NCBI GenBank assembly: GCA_037143175.1
Contig: JBAWZF010000001.1
Span: 106,199 to 170,198 of the forward strand
Length of the DNA: 64,000 bases
DNA from: a bacterium
GTDB lineage: Bacteria; Verrucomicrobiota; Kiritimatiellia; CAIKKV01; CAITUY01
Direction: 5' to 3'
In this document: in pieces, positions 4,674-63,166 of the stretch
Position numbering within the stretch: the stretch's first letter is position 1
How the letters are laid out: each line of letters starts with the position of its first letter
Position numbers and translations under genes: made by a program
The notes under the pieces: model-generated
Database searches by the model: none
The model's input: the letters and a program-made list of their open reading frames with translations, nothing else
Told to the model about the DNA's origin: nothing

Positions 4674-5807
4674 TTTCAGACCGAACATCTGTTCCTTGAG
4701 ATCCAGGTAATAGAGGTAATATTCCGGTTTCACATTGGGGGGGCACCGATGATCGCAGAACGGGATGTAACCGCCACGTTCGACAAGCGGAATCAAGGTT
4801 TTCATATAAGCTTTGATGGCGTCGGGGCCTTTGGCCATCTCGATTTTATCGAACCCGCCCATGATGCGCAGTTCTTTGCCGTACTCAGCCAGCAGTTCTG
4901 CCGGGTGGGCGCAGCCATTGACTTCAAAGGGGAACAGGCAATTCATGCCCCCTTCCATCATATATTTTAAAATGGGTCTCACATCGCCATCACAATCAAT
5001 CCACCAGAGCTTGATTCCTGCGGCTTGGAGGCGTTTGGAAATTCGTTTGTAGCGAGGCATCACGACGTCGCGGAAGAAATCGGCCGAGACGATGGGCCCA
5101 TTTTTAAAGCAAATATCCTCCCAGCCAGCCGCGAAGTCGAAATCCATTTGGGGGAGCATCTGGTCGAGGGCATTCTCGACGAGTTGGCAGGACGTTTCGA
5201 CCATGTCCTCAACCATTTCCGGGTAGTCAAAGCCAGCGTAGGCGAGACCCTCAAAAGTCAGCATGTCACGAATTTTACCGATCATTGAGCCGCACCAGAC
5301 GCCCAGGGGATAGTCCCGGGTCGTGGGATGAGCGCGTTTCATCGCTTCGATATTTACCTTGCGCGCGGGATCGTCCAGCCGGAACCGTTCTTCCTTGCAG
5401 CGTTTCCAGTCGTCCGGGGTCACGATGCTGGCCTTGATGTAATGGGGGATTGTGTCGTGGCCATCCTTGGGGACCTCGGCCAGCAAACCATCCCCGTTCA
5501 TGACAATTTTCGTGTTCGCGGTTTCCTCAATCACCGCATGGGGGAACGGCGGACTCATCCATACATTGCCTCCCGTCACGGCCTGTTTATCAAAGCTGAA
5601 AAATACATCCGCCTCGTCATTATTCTTAATGTTGTTTTTTGTAAATAGATCCCATTCGCTGAAGTTCTCTTCCCAGTAGCCAAACTCCATGTTGAAACAG
5701 CGGTCAACCGGGAGATACTGCATCTGGTTGTTGAAGCGCTGGCGGTCAGTCATGGTGCCCTTCCATTTTTGACGGCAGGGAGTGATCACTTTTTGGGGAG
5801 AGCTCAT
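4668..5807 (-). CDS. Uroporphyrinogen decarboxylase (URO-D) family protein (HemE/MtaA-like methyltransferase/decarboxylase fold)
   Basis: 379-aa ORF with the size and general composition of URO-D-like proteins. This is a family-level guess from sequence feel rather than specific motifs. It lies divergent to an AraC regulator. Confidence 0.5.
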   Translation of the reverse strand: MSSPQKVITPCRQKWKGTMTDRQRFNNQMQYLPVDRCFNMEFGYWEENFSEWDLFTKNNIKNNDEADVFFSFDKQAVTGGNVWMSPPFPHAVIEETANTKIVMNGDGLLAEVPKDGHDTIPHYIKASIVTPDDWKRCKEERFRLDDPARKVNIEAMKRAHPTTRDYPLGVWCGSMIGKIRDMLTFEGLAYAGFDYPEMVEDMVETSCQLVENALDQMLPQMDFDFAAGWEDICFKNGPIVSADFFRDVVMPRYKRISKRLQAAGIKLWWIDCDGDVRPILKYMMEGGMNCLFPFEVNGCAHPAELLAEYGKELRIMGGFDKIEMAKGPDAIKAYMKTLIPLVERGGYIPFCDHRCPPNVKPEYYLYYLDLKEQMFGLKS

Positions 5808-5837
5808 GAGGTATATCCTTCCTTAATATTGCAGAAC

Positions 5838-6752
5838 ATGAATAAAAGTAATTTGTTAAAAACAAAAACCAGTTACTATGAGTTAGTATACATTGAATGG
5901 ATCAGGAAAACAATGGATGACGGTTGGGTTTTCATGGACAATAATAAGAAATTTATTCAGCTAACGGTGAATGAGCTTCGCCCTGTTGTGAGTGTTGCGA
6001 ATTACTTGGAGGTCAGTCGCGGGCGGTATTGGGGCGAACGACAAATACCGGATTTCGAATTAATCCTGATTATCGAAGGACGTTTTGCCTATGAAACCCG
6101 AACGGCTTCTCCCCTTATTTTGAGCGCCGGAGATGTATTGCTGATTCCCCCGATGGAGTGGCACACTGTCAGGCGGGTAGATGAGCTGGCTCATGCAGTT
6201 TTTAGTTGTATTCATGGCGAGCTCATTCCCGGTGCGAGCTGGGCGCAGGGAGACTATGGCTTTTCGCCACCCCCCCAGCGGGTGACCCGAACGGACGGCG
6301 ATACCGCCATTCATGACCTGTTTATGCGCTGTCGGACGGTGTTCGAGGGGTATGATAAATATCGGGCGGTGTTGCTTGAGACCATACTTAAGGAAATCTG
6401 GGTGAGGTTAGCTGGGTTCTGGAGTGGAGGGCAGTCGGGCGTTTTTTCAGGGCGGATGAAGGTCATGGTGTCATATCTTCGTACTCATCTCGACCAGAAG
6501 ATCACCCGGCGCAGTTTAGCTCATGTATTTGGGGTTACCCCGGAACATGTGAATGCGTTGTTTAGGAAACAGCTTGGAGTCACGCCCACCCAGTTCATTC
6601 ATCGCGAGCAGATGCAGTTGGCCTACCGCTATCTGCGTGATGAGGGACTCAGTGTCAAGGAGACGGCCGCACGCCTGGGATATGATGATCCCTTTTATTT
6701 TTCGAGGGTATTCAAGCGCGTGATGCATCGGACACCTGCTTCTGTTAGGTAG
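5838..6752 (+). CDS. AraC family transcriptional regulator (N-terminal cupin sensor + C-terminal HTH)
   Basis: The C-terminal AraC HTH reads LAHVFGVTPEHVNALFRKQLGVTPTQFIHREQMQLAYRYL...LGYDDPFYFSRVFKR. The track start of 5769 overlaps the divergent gene, so the ATG at 5838 (MNKSNLL) is preferred. Confidence 0.8.
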   Translation: MNKSNLLKTKTSYYELVYIEWIRKTMDDGWVFMDNNKKFIQLTVNELRPVVSVANYLEVSRGRYWGERQIPDFELILIIEGRFAYETRTASPLILSAGDVLLIPPMEWHTVRRVDELAHAVFSCIHGELIPGASWAQGDYGFSPPPQRVTRTDGDTAIHDLFMRCRTVFEGYDKYRAVLLETILKEIWVRLAGFWSGGQSGVFSGRMKVMVSYLRTHLDQKITRRSLAHVFGVTPEHVNALFRKQLGVTPTQFIHREQMQLAYRYLRDEGLSVKETAARLGYDDPFYFSRVFKRVMHRTPASVR

Positions 6753-6782
6753 CTGTGGTGAATTCTATCAAGGGGAACGATT

Positions 6783-7361
6783 ATGCATAATTTCTGGTTG
6801 TGTTTTGTGCCGCTGTTTGTTGCCGTGGATGCGGTGGGTGTGCTTCCGATGTTTTTGGCCCTGACCGAGGGCATTGACCAACAGAAGCTCCGGAAGGTGA
6901 TCTGGCAATCACTGATTACCGGCACCCTGGTGGCGATTGTTTTTGTGATGATCGGGAAGGCTGTATTCCAACTGCTGGGGATCACGACTTCCGACTTCAT
7001 GGTCGCGGGGGGAGTTCTGCTTTTTGCCATTTCATTGCGCGATCTTCTGGTGAGCAATAAACATCCGGATCCAGAGGATCCTGATAGTCTCGGCGCTGTT
7101 CCAGTTGGGGTTCCCCTGATTGTCGGGCCAGCGGTGCTGACCACCATCTTACTGCTCGTCGATCAGTATGGAATTATTCCCACGATCTCTGCCGCCATCA
7201 TGAACATTCTGCTGGCTGGTATTGTTTTCCACTTCGCCGGTTTCATTACCTCCCTTTTGGGCCGGGCAGGTACCAAAGCCGTCTCCAAACTGGCCAGTCT
7301 CCTGCTCGCCGCGATCGCCGTGATGATGGTGCGAAAAGGTATCATCCAATTCATGCATTAG
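6783..7361 (+). CDS. MarC family (UPF0056) integral membrane protein
   Basis: 192-aa polytopic ORF MHNFWLCFVPLFVAVDAVGVLPMFLAL... with MarC-like length and topology. Confidence 0.7.
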   Translation: MHNFWLCFVPLFVAVDAVGVLPMFLALTEGIDQQKLRKVIWQSLITGTLVAIVFVMIGKAVFQLLGITTSDFMVAGGVLLFAISLRDLLVSNKHPDPEDPDSLGAVPVGVPLIVGPAVLTTILLLVDQYGIIPTISAAIMNILLAGIVFHFAGFITSLLGRAGTKAVSKLASLLLAAIAVMMVRKGIIQFMH

Positions 7362-7710
7362 GCGGATTCATTCGCCGGATGGATGCCAGTATGATCAGAT
7401 ATTGGAGGGCGATCAGACTGCCGAATATGAAACTGGCCAGAATCAGGTTCTGGGGGAGAAGCCGGTTGAGGAGGGGGTGTAGCAGGAATATATTCATCCA
7501 CCAGCCTGCACAAAATGATTCCGGCCATCCTCCATATTTCAGTAGGCTGGGCACAATTGCGGCAAAGCCAAGGCCCCAGGCGGCGAGGACCCACCACCTT
7601 GCGGCAGCGTACACATGCCGTCGCGTTTGCCAGGCCGTTCTGAGGCGTGGAGCCAGTAGCACCATGCCCGCCGTCATTCCCACCGCGAAATGGAGTGCAG
7701 CGTGAGCCAT
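7351..7710 (-). CDS. Hypothetical membrane protein
   Basis: 119-aa hydrophobic ORF starting MAHAALHFAVGMTAGMVLLA. Its ATG overlaps the stop of the upstream gene (TGATG). Confidence 0.4.
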   Translation of the reverse strand: MAHAALHFAVGMTAGMVLLAPRLRTAWQTRRHVYAAARWWVLAAWGLGFAAIVPSLLKYGGWPESFCAGWWMNIFLLHPLLNRLLPQNLILASFIFGSLIALQYLIILASIRRMNPPNA

Positions 7711-8051
7711 CAGGGAGTCTCCCGTATTTTTAGTTCACGCAGGGCAGCCAGCATAACCGCCATCCCCAGCAAAAAGATTCCCGCAGCATACCAGGAGGAG
7801 TCGGTCTCAATCTGGTCAATGGTATAGTGCCAGAAGAAGATATTGATCCGTGGATCCATGGAGAGCTTCATATAGAGTGAGTGCCAGCCAACTAACCGGG
7901 GAAGATCCGGAATGGACGCCCACACGCCGCAGATGGCCATGGCGAGGGGAGTGATGATGAGCATGGCAAAACTCGCCCGGCAGTGCCGTATTAAGTACCA
8001 GATAAGCGCTATGGCAAATGGAAATGACGCACCCAGGAGGCTGTGGTTCAT
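7710..8051 (-). CDS. Hypothetical membrane protein
   Basis: 113-aa hydrophobic ORF. Its start overlaps the stop of the O-antigen-ligase-like gene by 4 bp. Confidence 0.4.
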   Translation of the reverse strand: MNHSLLGASFPFAIALIWYLIRHCRASFAMLIITPLAMAICGVWASIPDLPRLVGWHSLYMKLSMDPRINIFFWHYTIDQIETDSSWYAAGIFLLGMAVMLAALRELKIRETP

Positions 8052-9796
8052 GGTGTGGATCCCCCAGGGATTACGGGTGGGGTCATCCAGGATCGGAGCG
8101 CTTGAGCCTTTTGAAAGGCCTCGGTGGCCCGCTGCTTATCATCAAGGCTGAGCCGGATCTGGCCCACTTCATACCAAAGCCAGTAATTTTGAGGATCCAG
8201 TGTCGCGGCACGGGTCATTAAGGATTCCGCCTGGCTGCAAAGAGGACCATTCCTTACTATCGAACCTTCTTTAAACATGGTCCGTCCCAGATAAAGCCAG
8301 GCCGATGATGTTGGTGCCCAGATCAGCGCACGGTGCAAGTCCCGGTATTTGGCCTTATAGAGATAATTTGGATCATCCATGGTTCGTACCGCGGAGGGTT
8401 GATAGCAGGCAATGGCGATAGTCCCAAGAAGCGCGATCAGTGCTGGCGTCATGGTCAGCCAACAGCGGGGATGAGTTTCTGGCACCGGGGTAAGTAATAA
8501 TCCGACCAGCGCACCCAGAACAAGCGCATAGATCGGAAGATGAGCAGGGAAATCAAAGATGCAGTGGATGGCCGTGACAGACAGAGCGCCTGAAACCGCG
8601 GTAATGATGACTGCAGGAGGTCGTGCAGAAGCTTGTTTCAGTCTTTGTCGAAGGCTCCATGCCACCATGAAGACAAGTCCCACTCCCAGCAGCCCGCATT
8701 CGGCTACGAGTTGGATGTATTCATTTTCTGCATGGATCAAACGGGCGCCGACACTGGTCTGCCGATATTGGGGGTATACCATGCGGAGGGCGTTGGCTCC
8801 GGCCCCTAGGATGGGGTAATGGGGCCAGACTCGCAGGGATTCCTTCCATTCATTCAGACGACTGTTAACGCTGTCAACTTGTGCCGGGTTATGAATCCCT
8901 GCCAGACGTGTGCGGATGGCCGGACTTTGTGTAACCAACAGGCCACTACCTGCCGCCATTAAACAGAGAAGTATGCCCCCCCAGAGTAGTCGGTGTCGAA
9001 AGGTAATGATCAGGGCCGTTGTTACCAGGCCGACAGCCATGGCCAGCATGGCACCACGGGAAAGTGACATGAAGACCACGCATCCCATCAGGCTGGTCAG
9101 TCCAAAATAAAAAATGGCGCCAACCCATCGTCGTGTACTGATGGAATGGGCGGCGAGCGCCAGGGCAACTGGACAAAGCATGGCTACAAATCCCCCGAAG
9201 TGGTTGCGGTTGAGGAAGCAACCTACCGGTGAAGTGGGTGCATGGGGGACCGGAATAAACCACCACAGGGTATCCCCCTGTGGAATTTTCCATTGGCCGA
9301 TATGTCCGGCTATTCCAACACCCGTTCCCAGCAGGGCCAGGAAACCCAAGAATAATAGTCTGCCTTTTGAGGGTAAGGCAGCAGTCAGGAGGCACGCACT
9401 TATGGCGGCTGCCAGCAGGAGAAAAAAGCGGAGCGTACCCGCCCGGTTCCGGCTCAGGCAGAACCAGGGCTCCTCCATCAGGGGGAGTGCCCCATATTGT
9501 GCTGCCTCATGGATCGATGTCACAACAGCCTGATTTTGTTGATGTCGCAATGAGCCGGCGAGTGCATCCAGGGCCGGCGGCAGGGGAAGGGCGGTAATCA
9601 GAATGAAGAGGAGGATGAGTGCGAGGCTAATCTCGAGATGGGGGCGGGATCCGGAATTCCGGTGGGTGACCACGCAGGCCAGTGCGCTGGTTGCTATTGC
9701 CACAATGCCGACTGTAATGGGGAAAAGGCCGCCACCACTAATGGTCAGGAACAGCATAGACCCCACCAGCGTTAAAAATATTGCCGCTGCCATCAT
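8048..9796 (-). CDS. O-antigen ligase (Wzy_C) family polytopic membrane protein with C-terminal TPR-like region
   Basis: 582 aa with at least 10 predicted TM segments. The Wzy_C-like loop reads RLIHAENEYIQLVAECGLLG. The C-terminal soluble tail YEVGQIRLSLDDKQRATEAFQKAQALR is TPR-like. Confidence 0.6.
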   Translation of the reverse strand: MMAAAIFLTLVGSMLFLTISGGGLFPITVGIVAIATSALACVVTHRNSGSRPHLEISLALILLFILITALPLPPALDALAGSLRHQQNQAVVTSIHEAAQYGALPLMEEPWFCLSRNRAGTLRFFLLLAAAISACLLTAALPSKGRLLFLGFLALLGTGVGIAGHIGQWKIPQGDTLWWFIPVPHAPTSPVGCFLNRNHFGGFVAMLCPVALALAAHSISTRRWVGAIFYFGLTSLMGCVVFMSLSRGAMLAMAVGLVTTALIITFRHRLLWGGILLCLMAAGSGLLVTQSPAIRTRLAGIHNPAQVDSVNSRLNEWKESLRVWPHYPILGAGANALRMVYPQYRQTSVGARLIHAENEYIQLVAECGLLGVGLVFMVAWSLRQRLKQASARPPAVIITAVSGALSVTAIHCIFDFPAHLPIYALVLGALVGLLLTPVPETHPRCWLTMTPALIALLGTIAIACYQPSAVRTMDDPNYLYKAKYRDLHRALIWAPTSSAWLYLGRTMFKEGSIVRNGPLCSQAESLMTRAATLDPQNYWLWYEVGQIRLSLDDKQRATEAFQKAQALRSWMTPPVIPGGSTP

Positions 9797-10434
9797 AAGT
9801 CCAAGTGAAACTCTGCAAGATCGGACAGGATTTCATCTGCCATGCTCACGTCTTGAGGCGGATGCCCCTTCTGATGCAATGCAACGCAGTGCATGCCCGC
9901 AGCTTTGGCGGCGCGTACGCCAGCGGAAGAGTCCTCGAAAACCAAACAGTTTTCCGGGTCAATCCCGAAATGGCAGGCGGCAAGGAGGAATCCCGAGGGG
10001 TCGGGCTTGCCGCGGGGATAATCCTCGTTACCCAGGTAGAATTGAACGTAATCGTGAATATCCATCAACGCGATGGCATCAGCGATCTGGCGGCGTGTTG
10101 ATCCGGAGACGATGGCGACAGGGTACCGCTCGGCCAGTTTTTTAAGAAGGTCGATGGAGCCGTGAATCCGGATATCCACGGTGGCGTGGAGGGTTTCATA
10201 GTATTGCTGACTTTCCTGCTCAAGAACCCAGGCCGCTTCTGTGATTGATGGATAATCCTGACGCAGTCGGGCGAGGATGTCACCCCAGGAGCGACCAAAG
10301 ACCAACTCGCAGGCATAGGAATCAGTTACGGGCAGGCCCCGGCTGTAAATAAGCTGTTGCATGGCCTTGCACCAAAGTATTTCGGAATCCAATAGGGTGC
10401 CGTCTAAATCGAATATATAGGCCTTAATCGGCAT
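9793..10434 (-). CDS. HAD-IA family hydrolase (beta-phosphoglucomutase/phosphatase-like)
   Basis: HAD motif I is FDLDGTLLDSE, motif II is VSGSTR, and the K...ED motif is FEDSSAGVRAAKAAGM. Confidence 0.85.
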   Translation of the reverse strand: MPIKAYIFDLDGTLLDSEILWCKAMQQLIYSRGLPVTDSYACELVFGRSWGDILARLRQDYPSITEAAWVLEQESQQYYETLHATVDIRIHGSIDLLKKLAERYPVAIVSGSTRRQIADAIALMDIHDYVQFYLGNEDYPRGKPDPSGFLLAACHFGIDPENCLVFEDSSAGVRAAKAAGMHCVALHQKGHPPQDVSMADEILSDLAEFHLDL

Positions 10435-10456: not shown

Positions 10457-10726
10457 TTACCCTTTTGTGCCTGCTTTGGCCGGTTTAGCTTTTTCCGGAG
10501 CAGGGGACTCGCTTTGTCCATCCATGGCTAGGGCCGCTTTCATCGTGGATAGAAAGGCCTCGGCATCTGCGGGGGCAATGTAAAACAATCCCTCCATGCT
10601 GTCGGGATCATTGGGTTCGAGGACGGCGCAGTCCAACAGGATCACCCCTCCATCTTTTTCGCGGTTAATGATATATCGTGAGTCGTCACTCTTTACCACC
10701 CACCGGCTTTGGATTTTCTTTGTCAT
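10457..10726 (-). CDS. Hypothetical small acidic protein
   Basis: 89-aa ORF in the same operon directly downstream of the PilT-like gene. The C-terminus is Lys/Ala/Pro-rich. Confidence 0.4.
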   Translation of the reverse strand: MTKKIQSRWVVKSDDSRYIINREKDGGVILLDCAVLEPNDPDSMEGLFYIAPADAEAFLSTMKAALAMDGQSESPAPEKAKPAKAGTKG

Positions 10727-10761: not shown

Positions 10762-11604
10762 TTATGTCAGGGTTATCGATCCCGCCGGATCCGCGTTCAC
10801 GCTGATCGTTTTAAGGATATGGTGGCACAGGAGAGGAAAGTCATCTTGCAACCGTTTTTCCAGATCTCCCAACAGATGCTGTTCATTAATGGCGATGGCA
10901 CTTACGAGCACCAGCGCGCCTGCCTGGGCGGCGCACATGAGTGCCTCGAACTCCTCCGGCGTTTTTGGATTGCTGACATACATCAAATCAGGAGTGAGGA
11001 AAAGTCCGTTGCGGATTCCCTCCGAAAGGGTCGGGACATCAATGCCCACCTCGACTTGAATCACGATGGAGTTCCGATGTTTCAGAAGGAATGACAGGTG
11101 TTGTTCCAAAACGTAGATCACCATGTTTCTAGAATCGTTCACGCGGGCCAGTGTAGCGTACATGAAACGCATCAAGGTGTCGGGTGAAGGGCCGGTAAAA
11201 AGGACAATTCCTCCACCGGATTGAGCCAGGGCCTCGTCGACCTGCGAAAGTTGAGCTGGCTGAGCGAGAAGGTTTTCCAGCTTAGGGACGTCAAAAGGCA
11301 TACGCTGGATTGAGACAAAATCACTACCCCGTTGCGTCAGATAATAAATTTTGAATCGGCCCTGATTCGGCATGCCGAAAGCAAAAACCCCTTGTTTGCC
11401 CAAATCTGAAGGCCCCGTACGCCGGGCGTGACTTGCAAAGATCGCCAGCGTGTCACGGATATCCTCAGGGGTAAGTACCGTGTTGAGGACGATCTTGAAT
11501 TGCGTCCCCACTTTTTCGACGGGGGGGGCGCCCGCAATGAGTAATACCTGTGAAAATCGATCCGGCTCGCCTAGGTAAGCCAGAATTTTGTTGGCATAAT
11601 TCAT
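10762..11604 (-). CDS. PilT/PilU-like protein with degenerate Walker A and Walker B (predicted catalytically inactive type IV pilus retraction ATPase paralog)
   Basis: It is collinear with PilT. The N-domain is present. The P-loop position reads [16 protein letters not shown] where canonical PilT has GLILVTGPTGSGKSTT. The Walker B position reads [10 protein letters not shown] instead of EDPDVILVGE. Conserved spacing and hydrophobic pattern are retained (EVGIDVPTL..., [12 protein letters not shown]). Confidence 0.6.
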
Positions 11605-13307
11605 TTGGTTCCTCCTGCGGCTTTCAGTCCTGAATCCTTGAGTGGTACGATCTGGTTGAAGACCGGGTACGAGTCGCGGTGGTCCTGGCTATCGGCGATG
11701 AAGTATCCCTTGCGCTCGAACTGGAAGCGGGTTCCAGGGGTGGCTTTCGCCAGGGCAGGTTCAACTACAGCCTTAACGATTTTCAAGGAATCCGGGTTCA
11801 GGTTGGTTTTATAATCCATACCTTCGGGCACCTCTTCGGGATGTTCGTCTTTAAACAGACGGTCATAGATCCGGATTTCAGCCAGTATTCCCTCCGAGGC
11901 GGATACCCAATGGATGGTGCCCTTGACTTTGCGGCCATCCGGAGCATTGCCGCCCCGGGTGGCGGGGTCATAGGTACAGCGAATCTCGGTAACCAGGCCA
12001 GTTACCGGATCCTTGGTGAAGCCGGTGCAGGTGATGAAATAGCTGTAACGCAGCCGAACTTCCTGGCCAGGGGCCAGGCGGTAATACTTTTTAGAAGACT
12101 CTTCGCGGAAATCATCACGTTCAATGTAGAGTTCGCGTGTGAAGGGGATGATCCGTACACCCGCATCCGGGTTCTCAGGGTTATTGATTCCTTCGAGGAA
12201 ATCGACCTGATCCGCCGGGAAGTTATCAATGACCACTTTGATCGGATCCAGCACCGCCATGGCGCGGTTAGCGGATTGGTTAAGTTCCTCCCGCACACAG
12301 AACTCAAGCAGGGCGATGTCCGTGTAGCCGTCAAATTTGGTGACGCCAATCCGTTTGCAGAAGTGGCGAATGGACTCTGCCGTGAAACCACGGCGGCGCA
12401 ATCCGGCAACGGTTGGCATGCGCGGATCGTCCCAGCCCTTGACATGGCCATCACGCACCAATTCCAGCAGTTTACGCTTGCTGAGAACTGTGTAAGTCAG
12501 GTTCAGGCGGGCAAATTCAATTTGGCGGGGTGGGGTGGGGTTCATGTGCAATTGCTGCAAAACCCAGTCGTAGAGAGGGCGGTGCACTTCAAATTCCAAG
12601 GTGCACAGGGAGTGGGTAACGTACTCAATGGCATCTTCGATCGGGTGGGCAAAATCATAAGTGGGATAGATGCACCATTTGTCGCCGGTTCGGTAATGAT
12701 GCGCCCTCATGATCCGGTAAATCACCGGGTCACGCATATGAAGGTTGGGTGACGACATATCGATTTTGGCACGGACGCAAAGGGTTCCGTCCTGAAATTC
12801 TCCCGCTCTCATACGGTTGAACAGGTCCAGACTTTCCTCCGCCGGCCGATTCCGGAAGGGACTCTCTTTTCCCGGCTGGGTGGGGATGCCACGGTAGTCT
12901 TTCCATTGCTCCTGGGTCAGCTCGCAGACATAGGCGCCTCCCTTGCGGATTAAGGCGCAGGTGCAGTCGTACATCCGTTCAAAGTAATCAGCCGAGAAAT
13001 AAAAATGCTCGCCCCAGTCGAAGCCGAGCCAGCGTACGTCGTTTTTGATGCTCTCGACGTATTCCATGGTTTCTTTGGAAGGATTGGTGTCGTCCATGCG
13101 CAAATGACATTCGCCACCAAATTCGAGGGCGGTCCCGAAGTCAATGCAGATGGCCTTGGCATGACCGATGTGCAGGTAGCCGTTGGGTTCCGGAGGGAAA
13201 CGGGTGACCACCCGGGAATGTTTGCCGCTGGCAAGATCCTCGCTGATGATATCTCGGATGAAATCTGAGGGTACAGGTGTTTCTGGAGTGTGCATGGTTT
13301 TTTCCAT
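11601..13307 (-). CDS. glnS: Glutamine--tRNA ligase
   Basis: 568 aa. The HIGH motif is [16 protein letters not shown] and the KMSKS region is near LSKRKL. A GlnRS-type C-terminal anticodon-binding beta-barrel region is present. Confidence 0.95.
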
Positions 13308-13322
13308 TGGAATGGCTAGACT

Positions 13323-14624
13323 TTATAGGATATTGATGGAATTCGTCAGTCGTGCCAGGGTCCGTTCACGACCCATAATGGCGAGGATTTCGTAAATGCC
13401 AGCCCCGATAGCAACCCCGGTGACGGCTACACGGAGGGGTTGGTTTAGTTTTCCTTCTCCGGACCCTATGGCGGATTCCGCCTGCCGGATGGCTTGCTGA
13501 ATGCTGGCCTCGGAGAAATCAGAGTTCGTCAAGGCCGTGCGAAGCGCCTCCAGCGCAGGCTTGACGCCCTCTTTCCTCAGCGTTTTCTGCACGGATTTCT
13601 CGTCGTATTCAATCGGATCGACAAAGAAGTACTTCCAGGTTTCGCATTGGGGATAGAGTGGGGTGCGGGACTGCATCAACTTGCAGACAGACATGAAGAT
13701 CTCTTCATTGATAGTTTTGCCCCAGTCCAACTTTTCAAGATGTCGGCGAACCTCAGCCGCAAAGACGGTGAGGGGGAGTTCAGCGAGATAGAGTCCGTTC
13801 ATATGCGTCAGTTTCCGGATATCCATCTGGGCCGGGCCGCTTCCGATGCGGTCCAGGGTGAAGGCCGAGATGATTTCCTCGCGGGTCATTTTTTCGCGAT
13901 CTTCGCCCGGGGACCAGCCCAGCAGGGTCAGGTAATTAAACAGGGCTTCAGCCGAGATGCCCATGTCCCGGAACTGCCCGACATAGGCGGCGCCATCCCG
14001 TTTTGAATAAGGTTTTCCCTGCGCATTGACAATCATCGGCAGATGGGCGTAGTGGGGAACCGGAGCGCCCAGGGCCTGATAGAGGGCGACATGACGGAAG
14101 GTGTTTTCAACATGATCATCGCCCCGGATGATATGGGTGATGTTCTGGGTAATGTCGTCCACCACGTTGGCGAGATGAAACACGGGGGAGCCATCGGAAC
14201 GGACGATGACGAAATCCTTTACGTCGGCGGCCTTCTTTTTCAGGTCGCCCTTGACTTCATCGTGGAAGGCCATATCGGTGCCGGGCATCCGGAAGATAAT
14301 GCATTCACCCTGGCCGGTGCCGCCTTTGTCCTCTTTATACGCATGTCCGTTTTGCAACAGTTTTGCCGCCGCCAACCGATGCTGTTCGTGCTGGGTGGAT
14401 TGGTAGAGGGGGGCTTCGTCAAAGTTGAGGCCCAGCCATTCCATTGCTTGTAAAATGGTTTGAACTGCCTCAGGTGTCGATCGCTCACGATCAGTATCCT
14501 CAACACGGAGGAGAAACTGGCCGCCATTATGACGGGCAAAAAGCCAGTTAAAAATGGCAGCCCGGATATTTCCAATGTGAACCTGCCCTGTCGGGCTGGG
14601 GGCAAAACGTACGCGAACACTCAT
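13323..14624 (-). CDS. gltX: Glutamate--tRNA ligase (short form)
   Basis: 433 aa. The HIGH motif is FAPSPTGQVHIGNIRAA and the KMSKS-equivalent is GKPYSKRDG. A C-terminal anticodon-binding domain is present. Confidence 0.9.
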   Translation of the reverse strand: MSVRVRFAPSPTGQVHIGNIRAAIFNWLFARHNGGQFLLRVEDTDRERSTPEAVQTILQAMEWLGLNFDEAPLYQSTQHEQHRLAAAKLLQNGHAYKEDKGGTGQGECIIFRMPGTDMAFHDEVKGDLKKKAADVKDFVIVRSDGSPVFHLANVVDDITQNITHIIRGDDHVENTFRHVALYQALGAPVPHYAHLPMIVNAQGKPYSKRDGAAYVGQFRDMGISAEALFNYLTLLGWSPGEDREKMTREEIISAFTLDRIGSGPAQMDIRKLTHMNGLYLAELPLTVFAAEVRRHLEKLDWGKTINEEIFMSVCKLMQSRTPLYPQCETWKYFFVDPIEYDEKSVQKTLRKEGVKPALEALRTALTNSDFSEASIQQAIRQAESAIGSGEGKLNQPLRVAVTGVAIGAGIYEILAIMGRERTLARLTNSINIL

Positions 14625-14930
14625 TTTCGATTCCTTTACTTTCTGAAAAAATACTGACTTAAATTATCATAAGACCTATTTGGGCGCAACGGATACCGCC
14701 TGTGGAGTCATGGCGGACTCTACCGACTTACGCGAGTTTCTTGAAGAAGATGGCCTGGGATAGGGATTTCCCTGACGGAAAAATCAGGGAAACCCTCATA
14801 TCTTTCATCCCTGTAAGTGTTAGATTTTTTTATTCGAATGCCATTCTGCTTGACTGAGGTGCGAATGGGGAGTTATACCAAACTCATTGGTAATGTCGCA
14901 TTCAGTGGGTGGTCGTCTGGGGGAAGCACA

Positions 14931-15287
14931 ATGGACGATAGCTGTATAGATGAAAAGGCTTTAGAGGTTCTGAAAGAACTTGGCGGCGTCAGTTTTGTCG
15001 TCCAGATGATTGACGTTTTTCTGGCCTATGTTCCCAAAGTTCTTGTCGAGGCTCGGAATGGCCTCGCCGTGGGGAATCTTGAACCGGTGGTGCGGTTGGG
15101 GCATTCCCTGCGATCAAGCGGGCGTAACATAGGGGCGCAGAAGATTGTGGAACTGGCGCAAAGCGTCGAATCGGCCAGTCGTGCGGGCCAGTTAATTCCT
15201 TTACCCGTGCTTCTGGATCAGTTGGAAGAAGCATTTCTTCAGGCGAAAGTCTGCCTTGAAGAAACAAAAGCGCGATTATTGTCGTAA
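14931..15287 (+). CDS. Stand-alone Hpt (histidine phosphotransfer) domain protein
   Basis: The Hpt signature GHSLRSSGRNIGAQKIVELA matches the HxLKGSSxxxGA pattern. The ATG at 14931 follows GGGGGA. The track start of 14817 is probably too far upstream. Confidence 0.7.
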   Translation: MDDSCIDEKALEVLKELGGVSFVVQMIDVFLAYVPKVLVEARNGLAVGNLEPVVRLGHSLRSSGRNIGAQKIVELAQSVESASRAGQLIPLPVLLDQLEEAFLQAKVCLEETKARLLS

Positions 15288-15317
15288 CATCAGATGGGTG
15301 GATGAGGGTTCTTCGGC

Positions 15318-16244
15318 ATGAGAAATGACGTCATGGTCTTTACTCTCGACGAGCAGCGGATTGCACTCCCGCTTCCAGGGGTGGCTCAACTCATCCGTTC
15401 TGCAGTGGTTACACCCCTGCCTCAGGCGCCTGCCAATGTGTTGGGCGTGATCAGCGTACAGGGGGAAAGCGTCCCGGTTCTTAACCTGCGCCAGCTTCTC
15501 GGTTTGCCTGAACGTGGGATCGGGCCGGACGCTCAGTTCATCATTATGATAACTGGGCGGCGCCGTCTGGCTTTGGTGGTGGATGAGGTCAAGGGGGTTA
15601 TGGACTTCCCCGAGCAGGACCTGACGGCGGCGGAGCCGATTCTGCCGGGGTTGGCGTTTGTGAAAGGGGCGGTCCGAACCCGCGATGGGACGATTCTGAT
15701 CAAGAATCCTGATTTATTCCTTTCGTTTTCCGACGAACGACTGTCGGATGAGTCGATACCATCCCCGGTAAAAACCCCGGAACCGCCGACTCCGGCTCAG
15801 ACGGGGTTTGACGTCATGGTCTTCACTCTGATGAATGAACATTACGGGATTGAAACGGCCCATGTGCGGGAAGTTTACCCGGCAATGGAAGTGACTCCCA
15901 TTCCCTGTACCCCCCATTTTGTGGCCGGAGTGATCAATGTGCGGGGGGATATCATCGCGGTGATCAACCTTAAAACCTATTTTGAACTTCCAGTGTCTGA
16001 GTCTTCAAGTTCAGGCGAGGTCATCATTGTGGAGGCGGGTGACTCTCTCTTTGGCGTTTTGGCCGATAGCACCCTCGGCGTATCTTTCGTTTCTCTCGCC
16101 GATTTTCAGGCGCCGCTCCCCGACTTATCCGGTATTCGGGCGGAGTCCTTGAGGGGGGTTACCAAGGATCAGATGTTTCTTCTCGATATTCCCAGGATGT
16201 TGGCAGATAAGAAACTATGGGTACACGAGGAGGTTGCATTATGA
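15318..16244 (+). CDS. cheW: Chemotaxis coupling protein with two tandem CheW domains
   Basis: There are two repeats of the MVFTL...VxTPxP...GVISVxG...VxNL CheW pattern, one in residues 1-140 and one in residues 165-300. Confidence 0.85.
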   Translation: MRNDVMVFTLDEQRIALPLPGVAQLIRSAVVTPLPQAPANVLGVISVQGESVPVLNLRQLLGLPERGIGPDAQFIIMITGRRRLALVVDEVKGVMDFPEQDLTAAEPILPGLAFVKGAVRTRDGTILIKNPDLFLSFSDERLSDESIPSPVKTPEPPTPAQTGFDVMVFTLMNEHYGIETAHVREVYPAMEVTPIPCTPHFVAGVINVRGDIIAVINLKTYFELPVSESSSSGEVIIVEAGDSLFGVLADSTLGVSFVSLADFQAPLPDLSGIRAESLRGVTKDQMFLLDIPRMLADKKLWVHEEVAL

Positions 16245-18481
16245 ACAATCAACGACAGAATCGGAATGGATCGGCCATGGGCGTTTGGTTGAAGGGGTTT
16301 ATGTTGGGGCTGGCAGGGGTGGCGGTTCTGCTGGCAAGTCCTGTCTTGGCGGAAGAGACTGGAAAGGCGCAAACAGCGGGTTCGGGCCAGGAACCAAAAA
16401 AGTTGAAATATATGACGCTCGACGAATTGATGAAGGTGGAGGTTGCTACGGTTACCACCGCCTCCAAGAAGGAGGAAAAGGCCACCGAAGCTCCGGCCAC
16501 CGTGATTGTGATCAGTGCCGCGGACATCAGGATGCGCGGCTATTCCACCCTGAAGGACGTGCTCCGCGACCTTCCCGGGATGGAAACCCGGGAATACTAT
16601 TTTGCGGAAGACGGCACGGAGGTTTCCGTGCGCGGCATTGTCGGTAACAACAAGATTGTGGTGTTGGTCAATGGCATGCGTGTCAATCCTCCCGGTGGCG
16701 AGAATTTTCCGTTTCGCAGTGACTTCAGTGTGAGGAACGCGGAGCAGATCGAGGTGATCTATGGTGCGGGCTCGACGCTTTACGGCCGCGATGCGGTGTC
16801 TGCCGTCATCAATATCATCACGAAGAAACCCGTGGAAGGTGTCACCGGGGAAGCGGGAGTGGCTGGGGGGCTTCATAATGAACGCGAAGCCTGGGGTTCG
16901 TTTGGTGGCATTCTTGACAAGGCCGGGCTCGTCCGGCTGAGCGGCATGATCCAGCACCACGACTCCGACCTGACGCGGCTTGACAGGGAATATCCGGGCT
17001 GGTGGCAAACCTATCGTGATGTCGCCAAAGCGAAGGGCTCCGGCTTGACGCCCACGCGAAGCGACTACGGTTTGAGCACTTTCGTACGGCTTGAAGCCGC
17101 TGACTTTTCACTGCAAACCTGGTATCGGGATTCAAGGCGCAGCAGTTCAGACAGCATGGCTCCCGCGTTCGGGTTTATTCCGGAGGCGTTGTGGGAGGAC
17201 TCCTCCTCCGTGACGGAGGCCAGATACCTGACCCGCTTTACCGACAAGGTGTGCCTGGACTCTGCCGTGACTTTCAACCGCTACGAGGTCGATCCGTCAA
17301 CCCGTTATGTCTGGGAAAATCCAGTGGACACGAAGTCATGGTATTACAATGACTACAAGTATGCGCGCGGGATATCCTATTCTGCCGAAGAGACCCTCAA
17401 GGTGGAATTCTCCAGGGACGTTTCGGTGCTGGCTGGCGTCGATGCCGCCCACTACGATATCGTGCCGAAATGCACGGTACCCGGCGGGGCGCATGGCTCC
17501 ATCGGGGACATCATGGAGGAAGGTGGGAGCTTTGAATATTACAGGGCGGACGGGAGTGGTCCCTATGGGATCCCCCGGGTCTATAATCAGAAGTATGAGA
17601 TGTACGGGGCTTATCTGGAAGGTGACTGGAGGGTTCTGGAGCGGGTGAAGGTCCTAGGCGGCCTCCGTGTGGATAAAGACACGCGGATCGACGATCCGTC
17701 CCTCACTCCGCGTGCGGGCGCCCTTTGGAATGTGAGCGATGAGCTGACGGTAAAATACAACTACTCCACCGCCTACATTTCCCCGGCCGCGTATTTTGCA
17801 GACAACGTCTACATGAACAATTACCAGATCAGTACGGCAAACCCCGGCTTGGAGCCTGAAAAATCGAGGACCCATGAGGTTGACTTAAACTATGCTAAAA
17901 AGGACTTCCAGCTCGGGTTAGCCCTGTATCATGGCGACCAGGAAAACCTGATCCAGATTTCCGACCGGAATTTGCCGCTGAACGTCATTGAAACCGTTTA
18001 TCTGGATTCAGCGCGCACCCAGCCAATAAACCTGATCCGGTCGGCCAATGGTGGCACAAGCTCCAATCAAGGGTTGGACTTATACGGCCGGGCGAACTTC
18101 GGGTCAGTCAGCCCCTGGTTCTCTTATTCCTACACGACTTTTGAAATGGAGACCGACGGTAAGATGACCGGTTTGCCTGGCATTTCGCATCATAACGGGC
18201 GTGTGGGGTTGACCTGGGCGGTTACGTCAAAACTGTTCGTCACGCCGAGCCTTGTGATCAGGTCTACTCCTGAAAACGTGCAGGCCGGGGCATTGGAACA
18301 CGAACTGGAAACACCCTGGCAGGCAAACGTGTACGCGTTGTATCATCTCTCGAAGTCTTTGGATCTCTATGCGGATCTGCGTAATGTTACCGATCATCAC
18401 TATGCCTTGAACGGGCTTTACGGCACGGCTGTTCCCCAGGAAACCTTGAGTGGCGTCATAGGAGTGAAAGCAACCTTCTGA
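16241..18481 (+). CDS. TonB-dependent outer-membrane receptor (plug + 22-strand barrel) encoded inside the che operon
   Basis: The signal peptide is MGVWLKGFMLGLAGVAVLLASPVLA. The plug motifs are ATVIVISAADIR and IEVIYGAGSTLYGRDAVSAVINIITKKP. The C-terminus ends ...IGVKATF with a terminal aromatic residue. The ATG overlaps the cheW stop (ATGA). Confidence 0.85.
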   Translation: MNNQRQNRNGSAMGVWLKGFMLGLAGVAVLLASPVLAEETGKAQTAGSGQEPKKLKYMTLDELMKVEVATVTTASKKEEKATEAPATVIVISAADIRMRGYSTLKDVLRDLPGMETREYYFAEDGTEVSVRGIVGNNKIVVLVNGMRVNPPGGENFPFRSDFSVRNAEQIEVIYGAGSTLYGRDAVSAVINIITKKPVEGVTGEAGVAGGLHNEREAWGSFGGILDKAGLVRLSGMIQHHDSDLTRLDREYPGWWQTYRDVAKAKGSGLTPTRSDYGLSTFVRLEAADFSLQTWYRDSRRSSSDSMAPAFGFIPEALWEDSSSVTEARYLTRFTDKVCLDSAVTFNRYEVDPSTRYVWENPVDTKSWYYNDYKYARGISYSAEETLKVEFSRDVSVLAGVDAAHYDIVPKCTVPGGAHGSIGDIMEEGGSFEYYRADGSGPYGIPRVYNQKYEMYGAYLEGDWRVLERVKVLGGLRVDKDTRIDDPSLTPRAGALWNVSDELTVKYNYSTAYISPAAYFADNVYMNNYQISTANPGLEPEKSRTHEVDLNYAKKDFQLGLALYHGDQENLIQISDRNLPLNVIETVYLDSARTQPINLIRSANGGTSSNQGLDLYGRANFGSVSPWFSYSYTTFEMETDGKMTGLPGISHHNGRVGLTWAVTSKLFVTPSLVIRSTPENVQAGALEHELETPWQANVYALYHLSKSLDLYADLRNVTDHHYALNGLYGTAVPQETLSGVIGVKATF

Positions 18482-18483
18482 TT

Positions 18484-19110
18484 ATGAATACACACATCCA
18501 TCCCGAGATCATTCTGTCGCGGACCGCCGGAATCCGGCCCGGCCAGCGGATGGTTGCTGCTGTCCTGCTGGCGGTGATGGGCTGGTTTGGTCTTCCCGCA
18601 TTTACTGTAACGGCTGCTTCTGAAGTATATAAGGAATACGAGGTCAAAGCCGTGTTTCTCTTTAACTTCGCCCAGTTCGTGGAATGGCCACAGGAGGCCT
18701 TTCAGGATGCCGCTACCCCCGTGTGCATCGGCGTGCTGGGGGATGATGCTTTTACCGACATTCTTGAAGGGATGGTAAAAGGGGAGACGGTCAAAGGGCG
18801 GTCCCTGGTGATCAAGAGGCTTCGTGATATGGCCGATGTCGCGACATGCCACGTGCTGTTCGTCAGCCGGTCAGAGGAATACCGGTTGTCAAAAATTTTC
18901 AGTCTTTTGAAAAATGCGGGTGTTTTAACCGTGGGGGAGTGCAAAGATTTTGCGATCCGGGAGGGAGTCATCAATTTCTTCCTTCAGGGGAATAAAATCC
19001 GGTTTGAAATCAATCCTGAGGCGGCGCGCAAGAAAGGACTCAAGATCAGTTCGCAGTTGTTGAGTCTCGCCAGAATTATTGAGATGGAACCCCCCAAGGA
19101 GAGGCGCTAA
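18484..19110 (+). CDS. YfiR/DUF4154 family periplasmic protein
   Basis: The signal peptide is followed by EYEVKAVFLFNFAQFVEWP, a CxGVLG motif, CHVLFVS, and the C-terminal INFFLQGNKIRFEINPEAARKKGLKISSQLLSLARI. This is collinear with P. aeruginosa YfiR (CVLG, CHLLYL, VSFEANLDSIARSGVRVNPSVLKLAR). Confidence 0.8.
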   Translation: MNTHIHPEIILSRTAGIRPGQRMVAAVLLAVMGWFGLPAFTVTAASEVYKEYEVKAVFLFNFAQFVEWPQEAFQDAATPVCIGVLGDDAFTDILEGMVKGETVKGRSLVIKRLRDMADVATCHVLFVSRSEEYRLSKIFSLLKNAGVLTVGECKDFAIREGVINFFLQGNKIRFEINPEAARKKGLKISSQLLSLARIIEMEPPKERR

Positions 19111-19114
19111 ACAC

Positions 19115-20707
19115 ATGAACTGGTTCCGGAATCTATCAATCAAGGGTAAGTTGATCCTGGCCATGCTGTTGACCAGCACCACCATCCTGGTGCTGGCTTG
19201 CACGGCGTTTGTCGCCTACGAGATGAATACGTTTCAGCGTGGGTTGAATCTCGAGATGAACGTTCTCGCCGATGTGTTGAGCCGTAACAGTACCGCGGCC
19301 TTGCAATTCGACGACCCGGTCGCTGCTGAAGTCACCCTCCACGCCCTGCAGGCGGAGCCGCATGTGGTTGTTGCCTGCCTTTACAAGGGAAATGGTGGAC
19401 GGTTTGCCTCCTATCACCGTAATGGTGACAAGGTGATGCCGCCCGAAAAAGCGGGTCCGGATGGATCCGTTTACCGCGCTGATCACCTGGAGATCATTCG
19501 GCCTGTCATGATGAATGACAAGCGGGTTGGATCTCTTTATCTCCGGGTGGATCTAGAGGGGATTCGTGAGCGTATTAACTTGTATGTCAGCATAGTTATC
19601 TTGGTGCTGATCAGCGCCTTTATCCTGACATTGGTCCTGGCGGCGGCGCTCCAGCGCGTGATTTCAAAGCCCATCCTGACCCTGGCGGACACCGCCAAGA
19701 TCATTAAGGAACGGAAAGATTATTCCGTTCGCGTTGAGGTTTATGGACAGGACGAAATAGGCCAGCTTACAGATGCGTTCAACCAGATGCTGGGGGAAAT
19801 TCAGGCGGGCCAGGAGACGATTCAGAAGGCGAACAAGTCGTTGCTGACTCAGGCCGGCCAGATCATGGATGGCGTCGGAATTTTGAGTTCATCCGCCAAA
19901 TCGATCCTCGGGTTCAGCAGCCAGTTGGTGGCCAATGCCGCCGATACCGTCACATCCGTGGTCGAGACCACGACCACTGTGGACGAGGTGCGGCAGACCG
20001 TGAAGTTGACAACCAGGAAAGCAGGACAGGTGGCCGAAGGCTCGGCCAACGCGAACCAAATCTCGCAGGCAGGTAAGAAGGCGGCCGAGGAGGCTGCGGA
20101 GGGGATGCGCCGTATCCGCACGCAGATGGATGCGATTGCCACCAGCATGCTCCGCTTAAGCGAGCAGAGCCAGACCATTCAGCAGATCATTGCGACGGTC
20201 GAGGACTTGGCGGCCCAGTCCAACGTGCTGGCGGTGAACGCCTCTATCGAGGCGGCCAAGGCCGGTGAACAGGGAAAAGGATTTGCCGTTGTGGCCCAGG
20301 AGGTCAGAAGACTGGCGGAACAGTCCAAGCAGGCCACGTCTCAGGTCCGGACGATCCTGAAGGAGATTCAGGCCGCCACTTCGATTGCCGTGATGGCCAC
20401 CGAACAGGGGACGCGTGTGGTGGAGACAGGAGTCAAACAGTATGCGGTGGCAGGAGAATCCATTCTTGCCCTGGCACGAAATGTCATGGAGGGAGCCCAC
20501 GCGGTGACGCAGATTGCCGCGTCAAGCCAGCAGCAACTGGCGGGAATGGATCAGGTGGCATCGGCCATTCAGAGTATCAAGGTGGCGGCGGATCAGAATG
20601 CGGATAACGCGAGGGAGTTGGAAACCTCCGCCCAACACCTTAACGAACTGGGCCAGAAGTTGAGGGAACTCGTCGTGCATTATGAAGGGCAGGAGACCGC
20701 CACGTGA
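19115..20707 (+). CDS. Methyl-accepting chemotaxis protein with YfiN-type (CHASE8-like) periplasmic sensor, HAMP and MCP signalling domain
   Basis: TM1 is at residues 12-34. The periplasmic segment VLADVLSRNSTAALQFDDPVAAEVTLHALQAEPHVVVACLYKGNGGRFASYHR parallels the YfiN periplasmic domain (ISYTVEAAVVFGDAQAAEESLALIASSEEVSSAIVYDRQGQALASWHRE). TM2 and a HAMP domain (ISKPILTLADTAKII...DEIGQLTDAFNQMLGEI) follow. The MCP core reads AAQSNVLAVNASIEAAKAGEQGKGFAVVAQEVRRLAEQS. Confidence 0.85.
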   Translation: MNWFRNLSIKGKLILAMLLTSTTILVLACTAFVAYEMNTFQRGLNLEMNVLADVLSRNSTAALQFDDPVAAEVTLHALQAEPHVVVACLYKGNGGRFASYHRNGDKVMPPEKAGPDGSVYRADHLEIIRPVMMNDKRVGSLYLRVDLEGIRERINLYVSIVILVLISAFILTLVLAAALQRVISKPILTLADTAKIIKERKDYSVRVEVYGQDEIGQLTDAFNQMLGEIQAGQETIQKANKSLLTQAGQIMDGVGILSSSAKSILGFSSQLVANAADTVTSVVETTTTVDEVRQTVKLTTRKAGQVAEGSANANQISQAGKKAAEEAAEGMRRIRTQMDAIATSMLRLSEQSQTIQQIIATVEDLAAQSNVLAVNASIEAAKAGEQGKGFAVVAQEVRRLAEQSKQATSQVRTILKEIQAATSIAVMATEQGTRVVETGVKQYAVAGESILALARNVMEGAHAVTQIAASSQQQLAGMDQVASAIQSIKVAADQNADNARELETSAQHLNELGQKLRELVVHYEGQETAT

Positions 20708-20709
20708 AC

Positions 20710-22482: not shown

Positions 22483-22484
22483 AA

Positions 22485-24713: not shown

Positions 24714-24716
24714 ACC

Positions 24717-50810: not shown

Positions 50811-50811
50811 A

Positions 50812-63154: not shown

Positions 63155-63166
63155 GGTGACTCCGGC

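Follow-up and report, generated by a model that had tools for sequence, protein, structure and literature searches.

A short PilT/PilU-derived protein from a Kiritimatiellia genome and the P-loop-less family to which it belongs

The DNA analyzed here is a stretch of 64,000 nucleotides from a Kiritimatiellia assembly (GCA_037143175.1, contig JBAWZF010000001.1), referred to below as the window. On its minus strand, the coding sequence at 10762..11604 (stop codon included) encodes a 280-amino-acid PilT-derived protein without the catalytic motifs of its relatives, as seen from the list of open reading frames (ORFs), phmmer searches of the PDB, AlphaFold2 and Foldseek, and substitution rates. Rather than being an isolated degenerate copy, this protein represents a large and old offshoot of PilT/PilU whose members uniformly lack the P-loop and are truncated at the C-terminus. 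Both the truncation and the membership in this family had been missed by an earlier note, which was made from the sequence alone. Canonical ATP binding and hydrolysis by the protein are very unlikely, judging from its sequence, because all four sets of catalytic motifs have been lost. Type IV pili, type II secretion, competence pili and archaella all have PilT-like ATPases as their universal motors, and how the engagement of these motors is controlled is only partly understood.

Homology to PilT/PilU and loss of the catalytic motifs

The product of the gene starts with MNYANKIL and is clearly a true PilT/PilU homologue, with a similarity far beyond chance. When all PDB sequences were searched with phmmer, the best match was PilT2 from Thermus (5fl3, E=6.9e-23, query residues 16-264 against chain residues 23-262). 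Aquifex PilT (2gsz/2ewv) and Pseudomonas aeruginosa PilU (9n32) were matched with E=1.6e-21 and E=2.3e-16, respectively, and the matches to DotB, PilB and GspE were far weaker. The NCBIfam profile TIGR01420 (pilT_fam) aligned residues 15-234 with its positions 12-225 of 343 (E=2e-20), although the score of 73.3 bits falls below its curated cutoff of 319.1 bits. The Pfam profile PF00437 (T2SSE) covered residues 104-234 with 21.9 bits (E=8e-5), under its gathering threshold of 24.9, and some orthologues have a precomputed match to it. The E values for 5fl3 and TIGR01420 show that the resemblance to PilT proposed in the earlier note is significant.

The predicted structure agrees with this assignment. 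An AlphaFold2 monomer model, obtained with 27 orthologues as input, reached a mean predicted local distance difference test score of 88.5 and a predicted template modeling (TM) score of 0.81, and it presents the bilobed fold formed by an N2D and a RecA-like core. The top Foldseek matches of this model in the PDB were PilU (9n32), PilT2 (5fl3), PilT4 (6ojy) and PilT, with E values from 1e-20 to 1e-16 and TM scores normalized to the query of 0.73-0.81 for the PilU/PilT structures (E=5e-20 and 0.81 for PilU 9n32). Concerning the N-terminal "PilT-N" domain that had been described, the domain is indeed present. However, it is the N2D of PilT-like ATPases and not the PIN domain that is sometimes named "PilT N-terminus".

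The register of the motifs was read from gap-free HMMER alignments to PilT. The former Walker A loop (11167..11193, minus strand, residues 138-146, translation checked) reads GPSPDTLMR where PilT has GPTGSGKST, so that both the lysine and the glycine-rich loop are missing and the lysine position is occupied by leucine. A pattern search of the whole protein did not find [AG]xxxxGK[ST] at any position. The former Asp box (11092..11106, minus strand) is EQHLS instead of EDPIE: in the alignment of IEDPIEF with LEQHLSF, the first glutamate is kept, and the aspartate, the proline and the second glutamate are lost. The former Walker B strand (10969..10992, minus strand) is PDLMYVSN in place of PDVIMVGE. 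Here the PilT segment DPDVIMVGE lies opposite TPDLMYVSN, the PilT stretch DPDVIMVGEMRD is aligned without gaps, and the catalytic glutamate (E204 in P. aeruginosa PilT) corresponds to Asn212. Finally, both histidines of the former His box (10894..10920, minus strand) are lost, since it reads GALVLVSAI where PilT has GHLVLSTLH, with Ala230 and Ile237 at the positions of H222 and H229 of P. aeruginosa PilT. The P. aeruginosa PilT sequence used for numbering reproduces the published K136, E163, E204, H222 and H229. The alignments therefore confirm the register of the earlier note, with no intact GxxGxGK[ST], and the replacement of Walker A and of the Walker B/Asp box that it had described. The Asp box and the His box turned out to be degenerate as well, and the loss of four motif sets supports, at the sequence level, its view that ATP hydrolysis is unlikely.

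Furthermore, the protein ends about 40 residues past the former His box. The alignments to 5fl3 stop near PilT residue ~262 of 368, and in the multiple sequence alignment the C-terminus of P. aeruginosa PilT is unmatched. This leaves ~100 C-terminal residues of the 368-amino-acid 5fl3 chain, and ~70-75 of the 344 residues of P. aeruginosa PilT, without a counterpart. Hence, the end-to-end alignment that had been reported holds for the 280-amino-acid protein but not for PilT, where ~70-100 C-terminal residues find no match. The missing region carries in PilT the AIRNLIRE motif, which is needed for PilT function in vivo.

A family without a P-loop

A word-indexed protein search returned 51 clusters of 280-310 amino acids with 37-100% identity, all of them from metagenomes or metagenome-assembled genomes (MAGs). 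When the same database was searched with a profile of the diverse alignment, the close clade alone was recovered. An exhaustive search of 1.84 billion representatives with a hidden Markov model (HMM) of the orthologues gave 106 at E<=1e-30, of which ~95 are 270-315 amino acids long (clusters at 50% identity). The window protein and 83 cluster representatives (50% identity) were aligned with 39 canonical PilTs, namely the next-best matches and P. aeruginosa PilT. In this alignment, the Walker A lysine is absent from 84/84 family sequences and no Asp box is intact in any of them. Degeneration also affects the catalytic-Glu and His-box columns, the glutamate being kept in about 12%. All 39 canonical PilTs have lysine at the Walker A position, or arginine in ~10%, and most keep the other boxes. 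The Walker A lysine column contains N (55%), A (13%) and V (8%) in the family versus K (90%) in canonical PilT; the column of the second Asp-box glutamate, E163 in P. aeruginosa, contains T or S versus E (100%); the catalytic-Glu column contains D (56%), G (13%) and E (12%) versus E (87%); and the His-box columns of the family are variable and hydrophobic. The pattern [AG]xxxxGK[ST] occurs in 0/262 family sequences versus 29/33 canonical PilTs, with median lengths of 283 and 368 amino acids, respectively. The search for orthologues with the same degenerate motifs, which the earlier note had suggested, found no P-loop in any family member of these sets. Moreover, a back-translated DNA pattern for GRFRVxYxTQRG retrieved 38 metagenome contigs, and 38/38 encode P-loop-less members.

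In a neighbor-joining tree, the family and the canonical PilTs were split in 100/100 bootstraps, in a comparison where the canonical sample was the best-scoring set only and the motif columns were included. The mean identity is 30% inside the family and 22% between the family and canonical PilT. The nearest subfamily is PilT/PilU: the family profile matches Aquifex PilT with E=2.7e-47, the scores of PilT/PilU are far above that of DotB, and DotB in turn scores above GspE/PilB. The canonical PilTs that match the family profile are 340-415 amino acids long and score from ~120 bits, and the window protein reaches 332 bits against the family HMM. The family was defined by a length of ~275-315 amino acids, an MNY N-terminus, the GRFRVxYxTQRGS motif, the glutamate of the former Asp box, Q-x-E-x-G-x-D, the absence of the Walker A lysine and a clade of its own. 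The window protein shows these features, with K85 where arginine is more common. In summary, common ancestry with PilT/PilU (TIGR01420; 2ewv/2gsz, 3jvv, 5fl3, 6ojx, 9n32) is reflected in the same N2D and RecA-like core. Unlike PilT/PilU, the family forms a separate clade without the Walker A lysine, the glycine-rich loop, a complete Asp box, the catalytic glutamate, the His box and ~70-100 C-terminal residues.

The former Walker A segment varies across the family. Outside the clade of the window, most members present GPxxxxN[ST], a loop of unchanged length with the Ser/Thr preserved and asparagine (55%) in place of the lysine. The Kiritimatiellia clade has diverged further, with Leu followed by Met or Ser. 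This pattern suggests that the loop either has decayed in steps or retains some non-canonical function.

Matches of ~720 amino acids were considered as fusions of a dead and a live PilT, which would have given a Rosetta-stone link. This idea was rejected, as both halves are canonical PilTs in tandem and two intact Walker A motifs are present. Such tandem fusions of ~720-740 amino acids are found in metagenomes (P0132, P0141, P0148 and P0159 of the representative library, two intact Walker A each). As covalently duplicated retraction ATPases, they would build rings in which the order of the alternating subunits is fixed.

Two clades of the family were located by scanning GTDB species genomes. 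The clade of the window consists of Kiritimatiellia/Verrucomicrobiota MAGs, which belong to the Planctomycetes-Verrucomicrobia-Chlamydiae (PVC) group, from freshwater lakes. The second one belongs to the Aquificaceae and includes cultured isolates. The member from Hydrogenobacter sp. Uz 6-8 has 280 amino acids, starts with MNYVPHLISYL and carries FQGKNHALVNTL at the P-loop position, and others are found in Thermocrinis albus DSM 14484, Hydrogenobacter thermophilus and Hydrogenivirga. For structural work, the thermostable members from cultured Aquificaceae (Thermocrinis, Hydrogenobacter, Hydrogenivirga) would be good subjects. In NCBI and IMG, members of the family are currently labeled "twitching motility protein PilT", "PilU", "ATPase, T2SS/T4P/T4SS family" or "hypothetical". 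The PF00437 T2SSE and NCBI "ATPase, T2SS/T4P/T4SS family" labels imply an ATPase activity for which the sequence gives no support, and mis-annotation as PilT/PilU or ATPase inflates the pilus-retraction capacity in MAG-based reconstructions of metabolism and motility. A specific model for the short P-loop-less PilT-like family is lacking in Pfam, NCBIfam and PADLOC, and full-text searches of open-access papers and bioRxiv preprints found no description of a Walker-A-less PilT family or of PilT pseudo-ATPases. A canonical PilT is present in Aquifex aeolicus (2GSZ, PMC6858323).

Regarding selection, the nonsynonymous divergence from eight orthologues is 0.12-0.34 and the synonymous sites are saturated; where it could be computed, the ratio of nonsynonymous to synonymous rates (dN/dS) is 0.06-0.11. 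The gene is thus under purifying selection and not decaying, which is what a functional pseudo-enzyme should show, and its membership in a discrete family agrees with this. In the comparison with the four closest orthologues, the N2D is the most constrained part, with a proportion of nonsynonymous differences (pN) of 0.06-0.15, and few segments are under less constraint than the former P-loop (pN 0.19-0.23). The N2D-like domain, residues 1-105, is encoded by 11290..11604 (minus strand), and its invariant or nearly invariant residues are M1, D48, F74, G82, R83, Q91, R92 and G93. It contains the retained 13-residue arginine motif (11323..11361, minus strand), where R83, R/K85 and R92 correspond to positions 80, 82 and 89 of P. 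aeruginosa PilT.

Among 77 diverse members with a mean column identity of 33%, G82, R83, Q91, R92, E167 and Q183 are invariant, and M1, D48, F74, G93, H176, E185 and D189 are conserved in at least 90%. The MNY N-terminus and the length are conserved across the family. R83, Q91 and R92 are also common to canonical PilT. In P. aeruginosa numbering, the family and canonical PilT have in common R80, R82, Q88, E159, Q175, E177, D181 and P197-D198, with arginine at position 89 in most. The residues lost in the family comprise G133, G135, K136, S137, T138, D160, P161 and E163 of the P-loop and the Asp box, and also R97, R176, R194, E204, D207, E219, G221, H222 and H229. Family-specific positions include L11, D48, L53, G72, F74, G77, Y149, H176 and S179.

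A putative non-catalytic role and its alternatives

The PilT hexamer is built from six packing units, each formed by the N2D of one chain and the C-terminal domain of the next (McCallum et al., PMC6858323), and the open and closed interfaces between these units use named contacts (PMC6858323). In PilT(Gm), R81 takes part in the packing-unit interface contacts and R83 adjoins the nucleotide site (PMC6858323). R81 is invariant in the family, and its partner E164 is replaced by T or S. The open-interface pairs S73-E178 and I163-S73 are kept (S in 81%, E in 95%, and L or I), the T221-H230 pair specific to the closed interface and the R195-D161 pair are lost, and the contact residues of the C-terminal region are missing or not reliably aligned. 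Judging from these residues, the family may no longer run a nucleotide-driven open/closed cycle and yet could still make PilT-type domain or subunit contacts. This combination of kept and lost contacts would fit a static, nucleotide-independent structural or regulatory subunit. It is also an attractive possibility that direct pairs have come to form between the conserved N2D arginines and the conserved acidic residues E167, E185 and D189 of the core.

Considering these data, we infer with moderate confidence that the members of the family associate with type IV filament motors as structural or regulatory partners that need no nucleotide, both the partner and the role being putative. The window protein is a functional and very probably non-catalytic descendant of PilT/PilU that has kept the bilobed fold and lost along its descent the P-loop, the Asp-box residues that coordinate Mg and water, the catalytic glutamate, the His box and the C-terminal helical region. 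Such a protein would not act as a motor but would work free of nucleotide as a structural or regulatory subunit. The surfaces that it has kept (the N2D arginines and contacts of the S73-E178 type) could serve for self-assembly, or for docking onto or mixing into PilT/PilB-type motors or the platform, and as an outcome the type IV filament machine would be modulated, not powered. With its PilT fold and inter-subunit arginines conserved and its nucleotide chemistry discarded, such a family would offer a natural way to study how the motors dock and are regulated. More tentatively, and with a rather low probability, the family could represent a hitherto unrecognized class of natural "dead-motor" subunits that regulate type IV filament machines without ATP in the deep-branching Aquificota and in PVC bacteria. 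They could do so by capping or mixing into PilT/PilB rings, or they could act as a brake or adaptor at the docking site of PilC/PilM.

Two known systems offer a comparison. ATPase-dead point mutants of PilT still support PilU-driven retraction in Vibrio cholerae and Acinetobacter, and in this respect a PilT-fold protein without hydrolysis acts as an adaptor for an active motor. However, those are full-length laboratory mutants that keep nucleotide binding and the C-terminus, whereas the present family is natural, truncated and P-loop-less. In the archaellum, FlaH/ArlH is a RecA/KaiC-like partner of the PilT-like ATPase FlaI. It is a non-motor RecA-fold accessory of a type IV filament ATPase and provides an analogy for a non-catalytic ring or subunit that regulates a motor, but it belongs to a KaiC-like lineage, keeps its Walker A and binds ATP, and beyond the RecA core it shows no homology to the family.

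In favor of a partner of filament motors, the family is present in the Aquificaceae, a pilus-bearing lineage, and one locus lies near a T2SSE ATPase. In this Aquifex sp. MAG (L026), the family gene (8001-8864) and the gene of a canonical T2SSE ATPase (5795-7204; 469 amino acids, GPTGAGKS, Pfam E=8e-140) are ~800 bp apart and divergent. Several observations weigh against it. The C-terminal region of PilT is absent from the family, and PilC engagement or the formation of PilT-like rings is uncertain on sequence grounds because most of the residues of the open and closed PilT interfaces are not conserved. The genomic context was surveyed at 66 loci from 26 lineages (70% identity), with the family HMM run on all ORFs for T2SSE ATPases and Pfam on selected neighbors. 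No neighbor was conserved across these lineages beyond phylum-level synteny, and no pilus or secretion gene adjoined the family gene at 65/66 loci. In the window itself, no pil or gsp gene, pilB, pilT and pilC included, was found within the 64 kb, and the word paralog in the earlier note, which presupposes a canonical PilT in this genome, finds no support there. Nevertheless, canonical pilT and pilU genes often lie apart from the other pil genes, so that the absent linkage is only weak evidence against a pilus role.

The main rival is a recruitment of the PilT fold to a process unrelated to type IV filaments, for example cell-envelope or polysaccharide assembly. There it would serve, free of nucleotide, as a scaffold or as a sensor of a ligand, and the retained Arg/Glu cluster of the inter-domain cleft would bind another anionic ligand or partner. 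We regard this as rather unlikely. In its favor, the gene is solitary and in housekeeping neighborhoods at nearly all loci, the PilT C-terminal region is lost, and R83, R92, E167, E185 and D189 remain invariant or nearly so despite the loss of the P-loop. It would also agree with the HAD (haloacid dehalogenase) phosphatase and the Wzy_C protein with tetratricopeptide repeats (TPR) that stand alongside in the clade of the window, with the KpsF/KdsD-like gene near the family gene in three other lineages, and with kdsB/lptC and Wzz/Wzy genes in L027. However, this proximity to envelope genes is weak and inconsistent, mostly on the other strand or several genes away, with no Pfam enrichment among 64 neighbors, and no ligand-binding motif was identified. 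A solitary location is no argument against a pilus role either, as pilT and pilU are commonly unlinked too.

An enzyme that binds or hydrolyzes nucleotides at a non-canonical site is very improbable. The loop has kept the length of a P-loop, many members have a Ser/Thr after the asparagine (GPxxxxN[ST]), and conservation extends to the N2D arginines, the first Asp-box glutamate and the PD of the Walker B strand. On the other hand, the window protein has leucine at the position of the Walker A lysine, and most of the family likewise has neither lysine nor arginine there. The glycine-rich loop, the catalytic glutamate, the second Asp-box glutamate and both histidines are lost, and a working active site would not be expected among the least constrained segments, where this loop is found. 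As for a non-functional, pseudogene-like pilT remnant that is still open by chance, the loss of every catalytic motif and of the C-terminus would be expected of it, but the selection and conservation data effectively refute it. The dN/dS of 0.06-0.11 with saturated synonymous sites, the uniform length of 262 sequences from two distant phyla, the invariant family-specific positions, the strong Shine-Dalgarno sequence and translational coupling that precede the start, and the confident predicted fold leave it a negligible probability.

The gene run and its surroundings

The PilT-like gene stands in a run of genes on the minus strand. The run starts with a gltX-like class I Glu/Gln tRNA synthetase gene (13323..14624; Pfam tRNA-synt_1c and Anticodon_2 on an identical product), followed after a 15-nt gap by glnS (11601..13307), which encodes a glutaminyl-tRNA synthetase (Pfam tRNA-synt_1c E=2e-106 and both C-terminal domains) and overlaps the PilT-like gene by 4 nt. 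Reading of the minus strand at the start region, GCCGCAGGAGGAACCAAATGA, corroborated the overlap that had been noted, with the TGA stop of glnS and the ATG of the PilT-like gene sharing ATGA. A Shine-Dalgarno sequence, AGGAGG, is located 6 nt upstream of this ATG (11611..11616, minus strand), within the last codons of glnS. The small acidic protein, the HAD phosphatase and the O-antigen-ligase-like protein that had been described downstream were all found, on the same strand. The former has 89 amino acids, is mildly acidic (pI, isoelectric point, 5.0) and has no family match; its gene (10457..10726) lies 35 nt after the PilT-like gene, and it is present in the relatives L005 and L015 and absent from L006. 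After a gap of 22 nt there is a gene for a HAD-IA, beta-phosphoglucomutase-like hydrolase (9793..10434; Pfam HAD_2 E=1.5e-29; TIGR02009 105 bits, below cutoff), which overlaps by 4 nt the gene of a Wzy_C (O-antigen ligase/polymerase-like) membrane protein with a C-terminal TPR (8048..9796; Pfam Wzy_C E=1e-20, weak TPR).

The run ends with two small hydrophobic ORFs of 113 and 119 amino acids (7351..8051, minus strand; overlaps of 4 and 1 nt), which have no Pfam or PADLOC match. They are conserved together with the Wzy_C/TPR gene, at 77-85% identity, in L005, L006 and L015, and may be accessory subunits of the Wzy_C/TPR membrane protein. A consensus scan found no intergenic terminator or promoter inside the run from gltX to the 119-amino-acid ORF, which is compatible with a single transcript, and the PADLOC defense models gave no match.

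The arrangement proposed as an operon is therefore present here, but it is uninformative on function, since the order of glnS, the PilT-like gene, the small protein, HAD and Wzy_C is only kept in relatives at >=73% identity (L005, L006, L015). The translational coupling to glnS is lineage-specific and probably says nothing about the role of the protein. Orthologues at <=70% identity sit among unrelated genes, such as those for a Ser/Thr kinase and a PHP protein, those of a kdsB neighborhood, those for HslUV and an M50 peptidase, or those for hybrid histidine kinases, for CoA-disulfide-reductase-like or Nuo51-like oxidoreductases and for PRA-CH (phosphoribosyl-AMP cyclohydrolase) of histidine biosynthesis. 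In the survey, the only recurrent neighbors were an Aquificota-specific synteny on the opposite strand (a pyridoxal phosphate-dependent decarboxylase and an Mrp/NUBPL ATPase) and the promiscuous Pyr_redox_2. A Pfam tally of 64 neighbors from non-redundant lineages gave no family in more than two members, and no T2SSF, PilM/N/O, secretin or pilin.

A KpsF/KdsD-like gene with SIS and CBS domains was observed a few genes from the family gene in three other lineages (L027; L032, 8658-9629; L060, 4055-5020), and kdsB, lptC and a Wzz/Wzy_C/GT9 block are also nearby in L027, where these genes and the KpsF/KdsD-like one occupy 6922-9740 and 15318-20561. This proximity to envelope-polysaccharide genes echoes the HAD and Wzy_C genes of the window and is a weak, unproven hint.

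Two other regions of the window present unusual gene sets. A chemosensory cluster on the plus strand (14817-26953) is divergent from gltX and encodes, in this order, an Hpt protein, a double-CheW protein, a TonB-dependent receptor, a YfiR/DUF4154 protein, a methyl-accepting chemotaxis protein (MCP) with CHASE8 and HAMP, a second MCP, a CheA-like Hpt-HATPase-CheW-REC hybrid, CheB and a REC-PP2C (SpoIIE) protein. This cluster is unusual in that an outer-membrane receptor and YfiR are part of a che operon and a phosphatase is the apparent output, with no CheR or CheY among the scanned products. Moreover, within 49770-63340 on the minus strand, an ORF of 2267 amino acids without a Pfam match (50812-57615) lies downstream of genes encoding BatA/VWA (60650-63340) and VWA/DUF7408 (57531-60821) proteins and upstream of a gene for a prenyltransferase/squalene-hopene-cyclase-like protein.

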